In this document: positions 2,232 to 40,496 of the stretch, one piece after another | Position numbering within the stretch: position 1 is the first letter of the stretch | Layout of the letters: each line of letters begins with the position of its first letter | Assembly (NCBI GenBank): GCA_023246005.1 | Contig: JAHFJG010000008.1 | Coordinates: forward strand, 1 to 54,408 | Direction: 5' to 3' | Length of the DNA: 54,408 nt | Source: Candidatus Doudnabacteria bacterium | GTDB taxonomy: Bacteria; Patescibacteriota; Doudnabacteria; UBA920; O2-02-FULL-48-8 | Notes under the pieces: model-generated | Seen by the model: only the letters and a program-made list of their open reading frames with translations | Told to the model about the DNA's origin: nothing | Databases searched by the model: none | Position numbers and translations under genes: made by a program

Positions 2232-2489
2232 TCAACCGTATAATTCTGAATGCGTGCCGATATCTAGGAAAATGGCAACTTCCGCGTTTTCTCTAAATAT
2301 TGCCCGATAATCTCCTGTAACATTAATGCTTCGACAATTAGTATAAGCCTGATCAACGGAATGGTTATTTAGAATCGCATTAAACTTATTTGCTGCAAAC
2401 AACTCTGCCCTTTCATAAAACTGTTTTCTAATTTTTGGAGGTAATTTCTTAAAGTTCTTCTTAAAACTTTTATGCAATACTACTTCCAT
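2232..2489 (-). CDS. Type II toxin, RelE/YafQ/ParE superfamily
   Basis: The 85-aa product has a C-terminus (GDYRAIF...GTHSELYG) typical of RelE/YafQ-like mRNA interferases. A 1-nt gap separates it from the upstream antitoxin ORF. Confidence 0.8.
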   Translation of the reverse strand: MEVVLHKSFKKNFKKLPPKIRKQFYERAELFAANKFNAILNNHSVDQAYTNCRSINVTGDYRAIFRENAEVAIFLDIGTHSELYG

Positions 2490-2490
2490 G

Positions 2491-2766
2491 CTATTTTTCT
2501 AAATATTTTTTCATTTCCGCAACAGTTTTAAAAGCTGGTGAAAGATTTCTATTTGCCTCGATATCCTTGATTGCAGCGTTAATTTCACGACGCGTTTTTG
2601 CGTTAAATTCTTCTCTTTCAACTATAGCAATATTAAGTTGGCCTTCCACAAAGGCCTTAGTAGCAAGTTTCAGAACCGAGGCAAAGGCAATGCCCTGATT
2701 TTGGGCTTTTTTCATAGCTTTGTCTTTGAGATTTTTATCGATTTTAAAAATAACTTGAGTAGTCAT
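2491..2766 (-). CDS. Type II antitoxin, RelB/DinJ-like (ribbon-helix-helix)
   Basis: The 91-aa product has an N-terminus (VIFKIDKNLKDKAMKKAQNQGIAFASVLK) resembling the DinJ/RelB RHH. It lies directly upstream of the toxin. Confidence 0.75.
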   Translation of the reverse strand: MTTQVIFKIDKNLKDKAMKKAQNQGIAFASVLKLATKAFVEGQLNIAIVEREEFNAKTRREINAAIKDIEANRNLSPAFKTVAEMKKYLEK

Positions 2767-3164: not shown

Positions 3165-3193
3165 AGTTTAACAAAAATTAATTATTTGGTCAA
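3165..3193 (-). promoter_or_regulatory. rplU promoter (predicts a leaderless mRNA)
   Basis: TTGACC (3193-3188) is followed by a 17-nt spacer and TAAACT (3170-3165). Only 7 nt separate the -10 from the ATG at 3157. Confidence 0.55.
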
Positions 3194-3340
3194 CCCCGTA
3201 TATCAACATCGATAATGGTTTTTAATTGCTTTTGCTTATAACCTTTGTTATTTATTATTGTTTAACGTTAATTAGTAAATTAAAAAATTTAGTTAGAAAA
3301 ACCATTTAAAAGGCAAAAGCATCGATGTTGTATTACGGGG
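3194..3340. repeat. Palindromic ~145-nt intergenic element, copy 1
   Basis: The 20-nt arms are CCCCGTATATCAACATCGAT (3194-3213) and ATCGATGTTGTATTACGGGG (3321-3340). Inner pairs are AATGGTTTTT/AAAAACCATT and GCTTTTGC/GCAAAAGC in crossed order. It is homologous to 35392-35532. Confidence 0.6.
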
Positions 3341-3785
3341 TCAACATCACGCTATCTCCAACCTTAATTTTATTCTTCTCACTCCAGCCGGCGTTAACTT
3401 CGACAACGCTATCAATGTCTTCATTAGGCACATAAGTTTGCAGAGGCAAAACCGGCACATTCGGCGTAATTTCAACAACCTTGGCGTTTCGAACCCAAAT
3501 AAAATCCAGTGGAAATTTCATATCTTTCATCCAAAAACCATACTTGTCTGGATTTGAAAAGACAAATAGCATAGCATCATTTTCCGCCAATGAATCGCGG
3601 CCAGACAACCCTTGTGTCCGCGCTGCCTGGGTGTCTGCAACTTGGATATTTAAAACATGTCCACCGATGATTAGGGTATTTTTCTTATTGCAAGCCGCAG
3701 CAAAAAAGGTTAAAGATAACAAAACTAAAAGAATCTTATAATTCCTTATTCCTAATTCTTTATTCCTAATTCCTATATTATTCAT
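3333..3785 (-). CDS. DUF192-family protein, probable lipoprotein
   Basis: The start was chosen at ATG 3785 (signal ...LSLTFFAAAC). GLSGR...MLFVF...GFWMKDMKFPLDFIWV matches DUF192/COG1430. Confidence 0.75.
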   Translation of the reverse strand: MNNIGIRNKELGIRNYKILLVLLSLTFFAAACNKKNTLIIGGHVLNIQVADTQAARTQGLSGRDSLAENDAMLFVFSNPDKYGFWMKDMKFPLDFIWVRNAKVVEITPNVPVLPLQTYVPNEDIDSVVEVNAGWSEKNKIKVGDSVMLTP

Positions 3786-35235: not shown

Positions 35236-35277
35236 ATTGTATAATTTTTTGTCCGATCGGTCAATATTTTATACATT
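35236..35277. promoter_or_regulatory. Divergent promoters sharing the palindromic operator of paralog 2
   Basis: On the - strand TTGACC (35264-59) is followed by a 17-nt spacer and TACAAT (35241-36), with the ATG 6 nt downstream (leaderless). On the + strand TTGTCC (35249-54) is followed by a 17-nt spacer and TACATT (35272-77). Confidence 0.55.
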
Positions 35278-35308
35278 GTCACAAATCTTAATAGATAAAA
35301 TCGACAAA

Positions 35309-35378
35309 AATCAGTAGGTTCTTTTGGATTGATCCTGCAACACTTTTGCGAGGTTCAACTGAACTTACTGATTTTTTT
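35309..35378. terminator. Bidirectional long-range hairpin (13 bp) flanked by A-run and T-run
   Basis: AATCAGTAGGTTC (35309-21) pairs with GAACTTACTGATT (35361-73), with one G-T pair and a 39-nt loop. AAAAA lies upstream and TTTTTTT downstream. Confidence 0.5.
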
Positions 35379-35391
35379 CGTGCGAATTAGG

Positions 35392-35532
35392 CCCAGTATA
35401 TCAACTTCGATAATGGTCTGTCTGCTTTTGCGATCTAGTAAAATTAAACTCTCAATTTTACGTCGATGAACGATCTAGCTTTGATCGGTCCAACCATTTG
35501 AACGCAAAAGCGATCGAAGTTGTATTACTGGG
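35392..35532. repeat. Palindromic ~145-nt intergenic element, copy 2
   Basis: The arms are CCCAGTATATCAACTTCGAT (35392-411) and ATCGAAGTTGTATTACTGGG (35513-32). Inner pairs are AATGGT/ACCATT and GCTTTTGCG/CGCAAAAGC in the same crossed order as copy 1. Confidence 0.6.
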
Positions 35533-35664
35533 TGGGCTTAACCATAATCAGCTTAGATTATCAAAATTTGAGCGTCAAAATAATTTATTATTTATCAAAA
35601 ATATAGCTTTTTTCATAGCGCTGTGTAGAACCTGTGAGCAAACCGTGAGTAAGCAGTGGAGTGG

Positions 35665-35697: not shown

Positions 35698-35725
35698 AAA
35701 ATGCTCAAAAATAAAAAACCAACTT

Positions 35726-35960
35726 AAAAACCACCTTACGGTGATTTTTAATTGAACCGGTGTGCTGCCAAACCCGCTAACTTCGCTCTTACGAACTCCA
35801 CTAGCCTGGGAATTGGTCCAAGAGGTTGCCCTTACTTGTTCTACACCCAAGTCGTTTCTTACTTAAGCGTACCAATTCGGATTCAACAGTGCCTGATCCT
35901 CGAACAGCCTTTTTAGAGCCGTCCTGCCTAATAAAGATTGCTCTTTACCAAGACCATGGT
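35726..35960 (-). ncRNA. Candidate ~235-nt structured RNA of unknown class
   Basis: A consensus promoter lies upstream and a GNRA-capped hairpin plus U5 lies at the 3' end. Several hairpins can be drawn by hand, including UAAAGA-GCAA-UCUUUA and a 38-nt CCC..GCUA..UUCG/CGAA..UAGC..GGG stem. The only ORF runs through two terminators. Confidence 0.55.
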
Positions 35961-35966
35961 GAAAGC

Positions 35967-35995
35967 ATTATAGAAACGACAAAAATATCGGTCAA
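35967..35995 (-). promoter_or_regulatory. Promoter of the candidate structured RNA
   Basis: TTGACC (35995-90) is followed by a 17-nt spacer and TATAAT (35972-67). The -35 is embedded in ATCGGTCAA, which is an operator half-site. Confidence 0.65.
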
Positions 35996-36136: not shown

Positions 36137-37144
36137 CTATTTACTAGCCAAAATGCTCTTTTTGTAACTATCCAAATTATCCAAAGCCACGCCAGTGCCT
36201 TTCACAACGCACAAAATCGCGTCTTCAGCCACATAAGCTGGCACCCCGGTTGATTGGCCAATTAGTTTATCCAAATTTTTCAGCAAAGCAGTGCCGCCGG
36301 TCAGAACCATACCCTTGTCTATAATGTCTGCTGCCAATTCAGGCGGGGTTTCCTGCAGGACAGAACGAATGGCTTTGATTATTTCTCTAAGTTCTTCTTG
36401 AATGGCTTCCACGACTTCGTTTGTGGAAATTGTCACAGTCTTGGGCAAACCTTGCAGCATATCGCGCCCACGGATTTCCATGGTCAGTTCTTTTTCCACT
36501 GGCATGGCCGAGCCAATTCTGATTTTAATTTCTTCAGCCGTTCTGTCCCCCACTGCCAAACCGTATTTTTTTTTGATAAAATCCGCAATCGCCTGGTCCA
36601 TTTTATTACCCGCTACCCGCACAGAGGTTTGAGTGACAATACCGCCAAGGGACAGAATCGCCACATCAGTCGTCCCGCCGCCCATATCTATAACCATATT
36701 GCCAGAGGCTGCAGAAATATCAATGCCAGCGCCAATAGCCGCGGCCACTGTTTCCTTAATTACAAAAGCCGCTTTTGCCCCTGCGGCTTGAGCCGCGTCA
36801 ATCACGGCCCGGCGTTCCGTGGAGGTAATGCCTCCTGGAACTGAAATCATGACTTCTGGGCGAAAAAATCTGACATTGCCAACGGTCTTGTTTATAAAAT
36901 AACGAAGCATAGCTTCGGTTATGCGATAATCAGCAATCACACCATCCTTCATTGGTCGATGCGCTACAATCGTATCAGGAGTCCGCCCCAGCATTTCTTT
37001 GGCTTCCGCTCCCACAGCCAAAATTCGATTATCAATAATCGAAATCGCAACCACGGTTGGCTCGTTGATGACTATGCCTTTTTTCGGCACATAAACTAAG
37101 GTGTTGGCTGTGCCTAAATCAATCCCAATCTTTTTTAAAAACAT
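36137..37144 (-). CDS. MreB-like actin homolog (second paralog)
   Basis: The start was chosen at ATG 37144 (MFLKKIGIDLGTANTLVY). It has the motif DMGGGTTDVAIL. It lies downstream of murA-murB. Confidence 0.88.
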   Translation of the reverse strand: MFLKKIGIDLGTANTLVYVPKKGIVINEPTVVAISIIDNRILAVGAEAKEMLGRTPDTIVAHRPMKDGVIADYRITEAMLRYFINKTVGNVRFFRPEVMISVPGGITSTERRAVIDAAQAAGAKAAFVIKETVAAAIGAGIDISAASGNMVIDMGGGTTDVAILSLGGIVTQTSVRVAGNKMDQAIADFIKKKYGLAVGDRTAEEIKIRIGSAMPVEKELTMEIRGRDMLQGLPKTVTISTNEVVEAIQEELREIIKAIRSVLQETPPELAADIIDKGMVLTGGTALLKNLDKLIGQSTGVPAYVAEDAILCVVKGTGVALDNLDSYKKSILASK

Positions 37145-37145
37145 G

Positions 37146-38399
37146 CTAGTCTTCTCTCTTAATGTCTGCTCCAATTGCGCTCAAACGTTCCTCAAGATTT
37201 TCATATCCTCTATCCACGTGCTCAACCCCTTCAATTTCCGATTCCCCAGAAGCTGTCAGGGCCGCGATAACCAAGGTGATTCCCATTCGCAAATCATAGC
37301 TAGTTATTTTAGCAGAATGCAGGGGAGTTGGGCCAGTAATTTTTACTCGATGCGGATCCAAGACTTGAACATTGGCTCCCATTTTATTTAATTCCGGCAC
37401 ATAGCCAAGGCGGCTTTCATACATCCACTCGTCAAACAACGATTCGCCTTGGGCTTGGGTTGCTAAAACAGCCATAGGCGGCATGAAGTCTGAATTCAAC
37501 TTTGGATAAAATCCGCACTGAATTTTGGTCGCTTGATAATCGCTTTTGGGTTCAAAAACTTCCACAGAATCTTTATTAACAGCGAAATTGACATTCATTT
37601 TCCTAAGCTTGAGCAAGTAATCTTCTAAATTTTCTGAATTGAGTTTGGATATCTTAATGTGACTCTTCGTGGCTGCTGCCAGCGTTATGAAACTGGCAGC
37701 TTCTTCGCCGTCAGCAATTATCTTCAGATCTACGCCACTTAATTTTTTCACACCCTCAATAATAATCGTCGGCGTGCCGAAACCAGAAATTTTTGCTCCC
37801 ATCTTTTCGAGCATGGCGCCCAAACACTGGACATGCGGTTCCATAGCCGCCAGCCTAATCACAGTCTTGTCAGTTGCTAGGCTGGCGGCCATCATGGCAT
37901 TTTCTGTAGCAGTGACAGAGGTTTCTTCAAGGACAATTTTACTTCCTTGCAAATTTTGCGCATTAAATTCTACCACTTCGCCGACTTTCACTTCAACCCC
38001 CAAATCTTTCAAGGCCGCAATGTGCGTGTCGATTGGCCTAACTCCAATTTTATCCCCGCCTGGGTGCGGAAGCGAGACTTTCCTTGCCCGTCCGACCAGC
38101 GGCCCAACTAGTAGTATTGAACCGCGGAGTTTGGAAACTAGTTCTGGATTTAAATTCGTTTTAACCAAATTTTTCGCTTCAATCAAAACTTCATGATCCC
38201 GCACTTCGACTTTTACGCCTAAGTCCCTTATGATTTCAGCCATTGTCATGACATCGCCGATCATTGGGACATTGGTTAAGCGGCAAGGCTCATCTGTCAG
38301 CAAACAAGCAGCCATGCAAGCCAGCACCGCATTCTTTGATCCGGATACTTCAATTTCCCCTTTCAAGTTTTTTCCGCCATTGATGATAAATTTGCTCAT
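37146..38399 (-). CDS. murA: UDP-N-acetylglucosamine 1-carboxyvinyltransferase
   Basis: The 417-aa product has the canonical MurA sequence (GSKNAVLA...; PGGDKIGVRPID). Confidence 0.95.
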   Translation of the reverse strand: MSKFIINGGKNLKGEIEVSGSKNAVLACMAACLLTDEPCRLTNVPMIGDVMTMAEIIRDLGVKVEVRDHEVLIEAKNLVKTNLNPELVSKLRGSILLVGPLVGRARKVSLPHPGGDKIGVRPIDTHIAALKDLGVEVKVGEVVEFNAQNLQGSKIVLEETSVTATENAMMAASLATDKTVIRLAAMEPHVQCLGAMLEKMGAKISGFGTPTIIIEGVKKLSGVDLKIIADGEEAASFITLAAATKSHIKISKLNSENLEDYLLKLRKMNVNFAVNKDSVEVFEPKSDYQATKIQCGFYPKLNSDFMPPMAVLATQAQGESLFDEWMYESRLGYVPELNKMGANVQVLDPHRVKITGPTPLHSAKITSYDLRMGITLVIAALTASGESEIEGVEHVDRGYENLEERLSAIGADIKRED

Positions 38400-39451: not shown

Positions 39452-39524
39452 ATAACTTAAGCATTTTAGCAAAAAATATGACTCTTGAAAATGGCATAAT
39501 TATAAGCTAAACTAAGTGTTAGTC

Positions 39525-40496
39525 ATGACTTTAAAACTTCGATTTTCACTCATTGGGTTTGGGATAATTTTATTCCTTATTGTGACCCCGATTTTAGTGC
39601 TCTACGCTCGGGGTTTTATGATTGACTTTAATACACGTCAAATCGTCAAAACCGGCGCCATGGTCATTAAAACCGACCCTGCCAAAGCCGCAGTTTACTT
39701 AAACGGCAAACAACAGCAGTCTTTGACACCGACAAATATTCGCTTTATGACTCCAGCAGATTACGACGTTCGGATCGAAAAAGCTGGCTTTCAAACCTGG
39801 ACCAAACGCTTAAATGTCCGCCAACAGTTTGTGACTTGGATTAATTTAAATCGCGAAGCTATAACGTTATTTTTAAAAGATCCGAAACTCGAACAAACTT
39901 GGATTACGAACAATGCCAAACCTTACACTGATGTAGAAGTTGCAAAGATAATAAATATTCAACAGCCGGTTCCAATGCCGATTGATTCTTGGTTTCTGGA
40001 AAATAATCAGCTAAAATACAAAAAAACCGATACAGATAATCCGCAAATCATCGCTGATAATATCCCTCCATTTACGAAAAGCCAAATTATTCGCGCGGAA
40101 AACCAAATTCACTTGATTTTAGACGATGCTTTGTACGCAGTTAACAACGGTTTGGAAAAAATTTATTCCCCAGTTCTCGCTGCGGCTTGGGATCCGGCTT
40201 CCAAACAATTGATTTTTGGCAACAATAATGAGATTTTAATTTATAATCCAAGCACGAAAAATACTGATCTGATTTTACGCAGTTCAAGCCAAATTAGTCA
40301 TCCCATGCTTAACTCCGAAACTGGCTATGTATTTTTTACCGCTGATAATAAAATAAAAGCTATTGAACTTGATAGCCGCGATAAAAAAAATATTTTCGAC
40401 TTAGTCGCGGATTTAGGAAATTTTACAATTTCAACAGATGGCAGAACATTGTATACTTTTAATAACACCAAAATCAATAAGTACACTATAAGGTAG
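39525..40496 (+). CDS. PEGA-domain membrane-anchored protein
   Basis: It has an N-terminal TM helix, a PEGA-like module (AAVYLNGKQQ..TPTNI..PADYDVRIEKAGFQTW) and a beta-rich C-terminus. Confidence 0.65.
   Translation: MTLKLRFSLIGFGIILFLIVTPILVLYARGFMIDFNTRQIVKTGAMVIKTDPAKAAVYLNGKQQQSLTPTNIRFMTPADYDVRIEKAGFQTWTKRLNVRQQFVTWINLNREAITLFLKDPKLEQTWITNNAKPYTDVEVAKIINIQQPVPMPIDSWFLENNQLKYKKTDTDNPQIIADNIPPFTKSQIIRAENQIHLILDDALYAVNNGLEKIYSPVLAAAWDPASKQLIFGNNNEILIYNPSTKNTDLILRSSSQISHPMLNSETGYVFFTADNKIKAIELDSRDKKNIFDLVADLGNFTISTDGRTLYTFNNTKINKYTIR

Follow-up and report, generated by a model that had tools for sequence, protein, structure and literature searches.

Two palindromic elements at gene boundaries of a Doudnabacteria contig

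The window analyzed here is a whole contig of Candidatus Doudnabacteria (54,408 nt), in which two copies of a palindromic element lie at 3194–3340 (copy 1, 147 bp) and 35392–35532 (copy 2, 141 bp), just as the initial annotation had described them. The MreB encoded by this contig shares 94% identity with its counterpart in a Candidatus Doudnabacteria metagenome-assembled genome. Both copies are very probably members of a family of very small Patescibacteria mobile elements without an open reading frame (ORF), of the type known as miniature inverted-repeat transposable elements (MITEs); the assignment to this type follows from their inverted ends, target duplications, empty sites and occurrence at many loci. 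The same termini enclose a second class of element whose interior is a GIY-YIG nuclease gene. The strand given for both copies is the minus strand, in the orientation we refer to as nuclease-sense (for copy 1, 5′ CCCCGTA-ATA-CAAC … GTTG-ATA-TACGGGG 3′); at copy 1, this is also the direction in which the flanking genes are transcribed.

Copy 1 is flanked by direct repeats that had escaped the initial annotation, namely TCAA at 3190–3193 and again at 3341–3344. Read on the minus strand, the former is the TTGA of the rplU −35 hexamer TTGACC (3188–3193), and the latter falls within the last codons of a DUF192 gene (..TTG ACC CCG TAA), the stop codon of which (3333–3335, minus strand) is inside the right arm of the element; the reconstructed pre-insertion end of this gene reads ..TTG ACC AAA TAA. 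The element is inserted on the −35 box of the rplU promoter (3165–3193, minus strand, TTGACC–17 nt–TAAACT), such that the minus strand now runs element–TTGACC–17 nt–TAAACT–7 nt–ATG of rplU, a leaderless layout. The proposal that the copies lie at the end of one transcription unit and just before the promoter of the next therefore holds for copy 1, with the DUF192 stop in its arm and the rplU −35 box at its junction, and applies roughly to copy 2. The latter is flanked by TAGG (35388–35391) and TGGG (35533–35536), direct repeats that differ by one substitution and had likewise been missed.

The outer arms of both copies pair as first described, with a 7-bp outer helix, a TAT opposite TAT that remains unpaired, and a 10-bp inner helix. 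In copy 1 (plus strand, CCCCGTA-TAT-CAACATCGAT / ATCGATGTTG-TAT-TACGGGG), the left arm (3194–3213) comprises 7 nt (3194–3200), TAT (3201–3203) and 10 nt (3204–3213), and the right arm (3321–3340) comprises 10 nt (3321–3330), TAT (3331–3333) and 7 nt (3334–3340). The equivalent plus-strand arms of copy 2 are CCCAGTA-TAT-CAACTTCGAT (35392–35411) and ATCGAAGTTG-TAT-TACTGGG (35513–35532). The copies differ at one pair of each helix, C/G versus A/T in the outer and A/T versus T/A in the inner, and in both cases the change is compensated, in agreement with the original description.

Two further complementary pairs, B:B′ and C:C′, are situated inside the arms. In copy 1, B (AATGGTTTTT, 3214–3223, plus strand, with AATGGT at 3214–3219) pairs with B′ (AAAAACCATT, 3297–3306, containing ACCATT), and C (GCTTTTGC, 3228–3235, plus strand) pairs with C′ (GCAAAAGC, 3313–3320), which directly adjoins the right arm. 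In copy 2, B (AATGGT, 35412–35417, plus strand) pairs with the ACCATT of B′ within 35492–35498, and C (GCTTTTGC, 35424–35431, plus strand) with C′ (GCAAAAGC, 35504–35511), which is separated from the right arm by an extra G (35512). The crossed order B–C…B′–C′ was confirmed in both copies and is conserved family-wide. Folding of either strand of either copy gives z scores of −5.2 to −6.75 relative to shuffled sequences, the minimum-energy fold consisting of the arm helix (A) plus C:C′ with B bulged out; a 22-nt left-end motif occurs twice in the window against an expectation of 0.00 from shuffles.

The element belongs to a dispersed family with target duplications and empty sites

Further copies were sought in metagenomes and in genomes, with one scan of each that required sequence from the MITE inner arm (loci fetched from relatives are labeled L plus a number). 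A gapped B–C–B′ pattern located two further copies in two named Doudnabacteria metagenome-assembled genomes, and a degenerate pattern of the ends matched 93 metagenome stretches, from which 60 full copies (58 distinct; 105–183 nt, mostly 135–150) were extracted. The description "two-copy" is hence true of this contig only, which holds just two of the family's copies; relatives carry at least 60 full copies (58 distinct), and these show the covariation that the initial annotation had proposed to look for. The family termini span 20 nt, with CCC[A/C]GTA followed by three non-complementary nucleotides and a 10-bp helix beginning CAAC, and the interior contains only short, incidental ORFs with no coding capacity. 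The centers of the two window copies had been called unrelated; across the family, many copies share the central sequence AATCTATAGATTAA, and the centers are not wholly unrelated. In one subfamily (L034, L052, L058 and L076), the interior is inverted relative to the arms, and ATA/ATA replaces TAT/TAT.

Direct repeats flank most copies, being exact 4-bp repeats in 45 of 60, 3 bp in 7 and 5 bp in 2, which brings copies with a target duplication of some length to 54/60. Comparison of orthologous loci reveals both filled and empty states. The copy 2 locus is filled in L056 and in L141 (MreB 94% identical), the latter having a perfect CCTA/CCTA duplication on the other strand; it is empty in L142 and L143 (MreB 90%), where the site reads GGTTAAGCCTATTAAACG with one CCTA and no element, and it is also empty in L073. 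Copy 2 is thus an older insertion, common to L141 and L056. A start-codon insertion in L073 (the L073_5749 site) corresponds to an empty site in the window at 39516–39530, and the filled site of L040 is empty in both L015 and L011. Public-run contigs at the two window loci yielded no empty allele, just other family members, and every public sequencing run in which the locus is present is a DNA metagenome from groundwater, with no RNA run among them.

The family combines small size, terminal inverted repeats, target duplication with empty sites, and many unrelated loci, at which the copies are solitary and sit beside housekeeping genes. The initial annotation had reserved the term plain MITE for an element with terminal repeats, target duplications and a cognate transposase; the repeats and duplications are present, which goes most of the way toward that verdict, but no recognized transposase was found between such termini in ~0.75 Mb of fetched loci, and the coding relative instead encodes a GIY-YIG nuclease.

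Insertions fall on −35 hexamers and start codons

The choice of duplicated tetranucleotide is strongly non-random (TCAA 13, TTGA 12, TCAT 10, CATA 4), and two classes of target can be distinguished. A TAnnnT motif follows at a spacer of 16–18 nt at 21 of the 25 TTGA/TCAA sites, mostly in the form TTGAC(A), against a background of 6.4% for all TTGA sites and 17% for TTGA outside long ORFs; of the other four sites, two lie where the copy joins a neighboring element. On the strength of these motifs, we regard the 21 sites as real −35 hexamers of the form TTGAC(A)–17–TAnnnT, with the insertions exactly on the first four bases of the hexamer. Copies at −35 sites occur in either orientation relative to the promoter (13 versus 12).

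The second class comprises 21 copies that adjoin the ATG of a host gene, and here the same end faces the ORF in 21/21. The abutting ORF spans 83 to >150 codons in 20 of the 21 cases (23 codons in L078), and the genes concerned include those for RuvA, DnaA-like, MscL-like and GAPDH-like proteins, ABC ATPases and others. The distal flank often bears TATAAT 5–8 nt ahead of the duplicated ATG, again a leaderless layout. The upstream copy of the ATG now opens an MTQ-stop peptide in 11 cases and an ORF of 11–27 codons in seven, and has been mutated away in three. At each site of either class, the −35 box or start codon is regenerated by the duplication. We read this target pattern as a preference for WTGA/TATG, with insertions surviving only if they restore the host signal; promoter complexes might also be recognized directly.

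Two other accounts of these sites were tried and rejected. One end of the element (GTTGATATACTGGG) contains an extended −10 (TGnTATACT), confined to one end because of the TAT/ATA asymmetry, but as a source of host-gene expression this outward promoter was discarded, being 3 nt from the ATG and too close for a leaderless start at the A. A cohesive-end "cut and ligate" scheme with a lineage-inherited tetranucleotide is contradicted by L071, a member of the start-codon subfamily that sits on a TCAA −35 box, and also by the variation of duplication length between 3 and 5 bp.

Some related observations concern the same targets. A −10 box lies 5–8 nt before the ATG, with no Shine–Dalgarno sequence, in many genes of the window and of the L002, L020, L024 and L040 flanks (e.g., TTGACC-17-TACAAT-6-ATG at a PaaX-like gene, window 35236–35264, and TATAAT-N6-ATG at ruvA in L002); leaderless mRNAs seem to be common in these Doudnabacteria. 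Tandem elements occur at the L051/L085 and L076 junctions, with one TCAA/TTGA between neighbors; where a duplication meets an element, the sequence formed (TTGA+CC) is itself similar to the preferred TTGAC target and could seed arrays. At L058 (266–564), a second MITE type (CCCCGTAGAGCTACGGCGGC...GCCGCCGTGATTCTACGGGG) is nested in the arm of a family member, where it occupies the GTTGA of that arm and has duplicated TTGA; elements with other ends may therefore share this target, and perhaps the machinery.

The same termini enclose a GIY-YIG nuclease gene

A fuzzy search for the termini retrieved from L075 (431–742) a 312-bp unit with the same outer ends, a TATG duplication, and an interior consisting of one ORF, which encodes a GIY-YIG nuclease; on this contig, a MITE copy and the nuclease element are ~200 bp apart. 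At E ≤ 1e-10, the protein matches 613 homologues, which belong to Doudnabacteria, Nealsonbacteria and other Patescibacteria and all have PF01541 recorded. Approximately two-thirds of the best 120 homologues begin with MPSNTT or a one-residue variant, a sequence encoded by ATG followed by CCC AGT AAT ACA ACT, i.e., the element terminus, and most C-termini end in ..GS* or ..ES*, corresponding to AGT TGA inside the other terminus.

At the DNA level, nine independent nuclease insertions could be delimited, each of 309–315 bp with a sole ORF of 93–101 aa, at unrelated loci (murG, purF, dnaB, radA-like, abiEii). Their duplications are TATG in seven, ATG in one and TAGGA in one; eight of the nine sit on a host start codon and are co-oriented with the host gene. 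The nuclease ORF begins on the upstream copy of the host ATG, and its TGA stop lies in GTTGATAT, 9–10 nt before the host ATG, a layout that would fit termination–reinitiation of the host gene. The arms are always 7 bp, ATA/ATA and exactly 10 bp.

With ~95 aa, the nuclease amounts to a bare catalytic domain of the YhbQ/UPF0213/Slx1 type, and its closest solved structure is UPF0213 protein BH0048 (1zg2, E 8e-8); the catalytic core (GIY..YIG plus Arg/His/Glu) is ≥95% conserved in 120 homologues. Slx1, YhbQ and YazA constitute one family of structure-selective nucleases (PMC7017083).

Other interiors also occur between the same arms, which identifies the arms as a shared cis element. These include ~80-nt mini versions in the same metagenomes, and at L076 (4248–4419) a terminus followed by a RhuM-like ORF (MENQDNKGEIIIYKAQEGPEIQV), the fetched sequence ending before the far terminus. 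At L021 (3714–3889) and L095 (10411–10612), the terminus is followed by a broken nuclease start (MPSNTTFRMFYW*) and then unrelated DNA, and the fetched sequence again stops short of the far terminus (in L021, at the contig end). A separate set of distant small GIY-YIG genes (30–39% identity; L068, L064, L074, L085) adjoins tRNA genes, and the palindromes that flank them are different from the termini described here; in these genomes, mobility of small GIY-YIG genes may take several forms.

Compensatory change maintains the pairing of arms and interior

Across the 58 distinct MITE copies, the arms are 99.8–100% paired, with double-sided changes at three positions; the variants A, T and G of CAACNTCGAT are each matched in the opposite arm. 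When MITEs and nuclease elements are taken together, pairing of the inner helix reaches 100%, and double changes affect 5/10 pairs (variants CGAT/ATCG, CCAG/CTGG, CCAA/TTGG, TCAG/CTGA and TCGG/CCGA), and in both classes pairing ends exactly at 10 bp. The three-nucleotide spacer positions are mismatched in every copy. The same constraint is visible at the protein level, where an N-terminal TTF occurs with a C-terminal ES* and TTS with GS*; exceptions are G.T wobbles only, and S with E is never seen.

Orthologous copies also differ by compensated changes. Between L009 and L047, a T>G change in one arm is accompanied by A>C in the other, and the AATGGT/ACCATT of copy 2 corresponds to ATGGCCG/CGGCCAT in L056 and L141, a compensated T>C / A>G in B:B′. 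Copy 2 and L056 are 84% identical over the whole element (arms 41/41, interior 78%), whereas their immediate non-coding flanks are 58–59% identical. Double-sided changes affect 9/11 pairs of B:B′. C:C′ is ~96% paired with little variation and one double change counted, to which inspection by eye adds two or three compensated variants (L052, TTGTTTTTGC/GCAAAAACAA; L046, GCTTTTGTC/GACAAAAGC). Complementarity of the arms and of B:B′ is kept by compensatory change, and that of C:C′ more weakly, so that the earlier argument for selection on pairing, as opposed to a decaying repeat, stands.

A proposed mechanism and its alternatives

The sequences establish that the element moves, duplicates its target, occupies distinct classes of site, keeps one orientation at start codons, has termini in common with the nuclease elements, and covaries in its pairings. 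We propose that the GIY-YIG nuclease from ORF-bearing members would mobilize the ORF-less MITE in trans, nicking WTGA/TATG targets with a 4-nt stagger. On sequence evidence, we consider the matter evenly poised as to whether a nuclease supplied in this way makes the staggered target cut and moves the MITE. The nuclease would read the element ends as a fold-back, in which the invariant 3×3 loop could tell the strands apart (ATA/ATA on one, TAT/TAT on the other); that the termini are recognized as a folded single strand or cruciform, with the loop marking strand or end identity, is a tentative suggestion that we hold to be somewhat doubtful. The arm helix would be continued by B:B′ on the 5′ strand and by C:C′ on the 3′ strand; since each extends the arm, the two must be alternatives or form a pseudoknotted three-helix junction, and the B/C interior might stabilize the fold-back in either of these ways. 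It is conceivable, if not quite probable, that the 309–315-bp units are autonomous transposons with the ~95-aa GIY-YIG nuclease as sole protein, and that the window elements are their non-autonomous riders. In such units, the ends would be recognized as a folded stem with the 3×3 loop, WTGA/TATG would be cut with a 4-nt stagger, and host start codons would be parasitized, with host translation restored by termination–reinitiation.

Several points weigh against mobilization by the nuclease and recognition of a fold. GIY-YIG nucleases are not, to our knowledge, known for strand transfer, and it is DDE transposases that typically leave a regular 4-bp duplication, the signature of their staggered strand transfer. 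The window itself, when searched, encodes no homologue of the nuclease. Shared ancestry inflates the covariation counts, such that perhaps four to five of the double changes in the MITE arms are independent, and gene conversion between copies could mimic in situ compensation. G.T mismatches stand at 14 against 8 for A.C and single out no folding strand, and the RNAalifold consensus retains the arms only. The cargo that follows the same terminus in L076 indicates that passengers occur, and the nuclease could be a passenger too. This last point, together with the regular duplication, favors a classical MITE moved by an ordinary transposase that our searches did not find, the GIY-YIG gene being a successful passenger between the same ends. 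A MITE type with CCCCGTAG termini in L058, which inserts at TTGA with a TTGA duplication, suggests machinery common to several end types; a GIY-YIG-only transposon is absent from the literature searched, and we know of none. Yet a fuzzy search of ~0.75 Mb of fetched loci for termini that face each other, whatever their spacing, delimits short elements only and no transposase-sized unit (a full-length insertion sequence (IS) with diverged inner arms could be missed, given that the copy scans needed MITE inner-arm sequence), more than 600 nuclease homologues carry the termini within their own first and last codons, and all nine nuclease elements checked contain that ORF alone. We judge the passenger explanation to be rather unlikely, albeit a serious competitor to mobilization by the nuclease.

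The initial annotation had entertained a stand-alone structured RNA, and a non-coding or cis-regulatory RNA (a pseudoknot or switch) maintained by the host at both loci would explain much of the pairing data: the strong fold of either strand, the covariation in A and B:B′, the compensated changes between orthologous copies, and the conservation of copy 2 well above its non-coding flanks, arms above all. The strict orientation at start codons further shows that transcript or translation matters there. What makes this explanation very improbable is that 4-bp duplications (45/60) and empty sites denote insertion rather than an ancestral gene, that copies at −35 sites lie in both orientations, and that the arms are common to protein-coding elements. 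Rfam covariance models gave no family at gathering score in the window, E-value mode returning only sub-threshold miRNA-hairpin matches by chance, and tRNA/tmRNA scans of the window found nothing relevant to the element. At some loci, a role at the RNA level may have been exapted secondarily. Chance, decay of an inverted repeat or an assembly artefact can draw on the low copy number in this contig and nothing else; with no motif match expected by chance, 60 copies across many independent assemblies and samples, and the same loci covered by contigs of four public runs, we attach next to no weight to it.

Comparison with known systems

In the way it works, the element resembles bacterial MITEs whose hairpins are transcribed, namely Correia/NEMIS of Neisseria, ERIC/IRU of enterobacteria and RUP/BOX of pneumococci, which are likewise ORF-less, multicopy elements of ~100–150 bp with terminal inverted repeats, a short target duplication and long hairpin potential, located between genes near promoters or gene ends. 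Those elements, however, duplicate TA or similar rather than 4 bp, and derive from or match DDE transposases (IS630/IS30-like and others), whereas the only coding relative here is a GIY-YIG nuclease; targeting of the −35 hexamer and start codon, and the crossed interior pairings, further set the present family apart.

The nuclease element recalls free-standing GIY-YIG homing genes (T4 Seg, I-TevI relatives, mitochondrial mobile ORFs) in being a small selfish gene that encodes a nuclease only and lies beside or in phase with host genes. Homing endonucleases, though, carry a DNA-binding domain, move by double-strand-break repair into a cognate allele and lack inverted-repeat ends or duplications, in contrast to the bare ~95-aa domain, 20-nt inverted termini, 4-bp duplications and many unrelated loci observed here. 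Mobile insertion cassettes such as MIC231 of Bacillus cereus place IS-type ends around non-transposase genes, an arrangement to which either the nuclease element or the cargo of L076 might be assigned; such cassettes have a cognate IS (IS231) as transposase source, but none was found here in the search for facing termini.

REPIN/RAYT and IS200/IS605 palindromes are also non-autonomous hairpin elements whose pairing is kept by compensatory change, and they are mobilized by a small trans-acting nuclease that recognizes single-stranded DNA in folded form, to which the route proposed above may be likened. They use HUH (Y1) enzymes, make no target duplication and are recognized through subterminal hairpins, while the family here is duplicated at its target in 54/60 copies and pairs end to end. 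REPIN/RAYT was ruled out by the target duplication and by an associated gene that is GIY-YIG and not HUH, and an IS200/IS605 derivative by the pairing of the two ends with each other and the same variable tetranucleotide on both sides. Integron attC sites share an imperfect inverted repeat with conserved ends, a variable center and two helices with an unpaired spacer, and their structure is conserved over sequence and recognized as a folded strand, which may again be likened to the element. There is, in contrast to attC, no cassette array or integrase context, and variable target duplications denote transposition rather than site-specific recombination; the outer ends (CCCNGTA/TACNGGG, not RYYYAAC / GTTRRRY, with CAAC/GTTG in the inner helix) exclude an attC site.

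Implications

The literature searched contains no description of this element family, nor of any MITEs in the Candidate Phyla Radiation or these bacteria, and a repeat family is hereby added to Patescibacteria. Insertions that rebuild the signal they interrupt show a way in which mobile DNA can endure in a genome with next to no spare sequence, and in these organisms, which cannot be cultured, the positions of the copies point to promoters and leaderless starts. Because the termini are linked to a bare GIY-YIG gene with >600 homologues, our data suggest that many proteins annotated as "GIY-YIG nuclease family protein" in these genomes are mobile elements, and this link makes transposition by a structure-selective nuclease a testable question. 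No GIY-YIG element with inverted-repeat ends and target duplication is described in the literature searched, the nearest precedent being the accessory, non-essential GIY-YIG nuclease of the Tsy transposon (PMC10293859). The compensation between first and last codons offers a clean natural case of nucleic-acid pairing constraining coding sequence. The feature in the window, as a MITE, is a known kind of element, and its partner may be a new kind of transposon; should the autonomous nature of the nuclease units be borne out, no autonomous DNA transposon would be smaller, and none before them would have had a GIY-YIG nuclease as mobilizing enzyme.

Other features of the window

A hairpin with 25-nt arms (35302–35380, 84% complementary) and T/A runs on both sides separates copy 2 from the PaaX/PadR-like gene promoter; it is conserved in L141 and L142 and resembles a bidirectional terminator. 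Between mreB and copy 2, a conserved promoter-to-terminator unit (~35715–35995, minus strand) consists of TTGACC-17-TATAAT (35995–35967), ~245 nt free of ORFs, and a terminator hairpin (35751–35724); its body aligns closely with L141 and L142, and the surrounding spacers do not. No Rfam family matches this unit at threshold (best BTnc231, plus strand, 34.7 bits versus a gathering score of 80.4), and the unit probably encodes a small RNA that is either undescribed or very divergent.

Just downstream of rplU, a YafQ/ParE-type toxin ORF (2235–2489, minus strand) is preceded by an ORF of 91 aa without a Pfam match (2494–2766, minus strand), and the two probably constitute a type II toxin–antitoxin pair. 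An inverted repeat at the contig end (54182–54296; 22-nt arms, 86% complementary, 71 nt apart) has MITE-like geometry and a sequence unrelated to the element. The mreB ORF (36137–37174) was called from a TTG, giving 345 aa; as close homologues are all 335 aa, its true start is probably the ATG ten codons in (MFLKKIGIDLG..).

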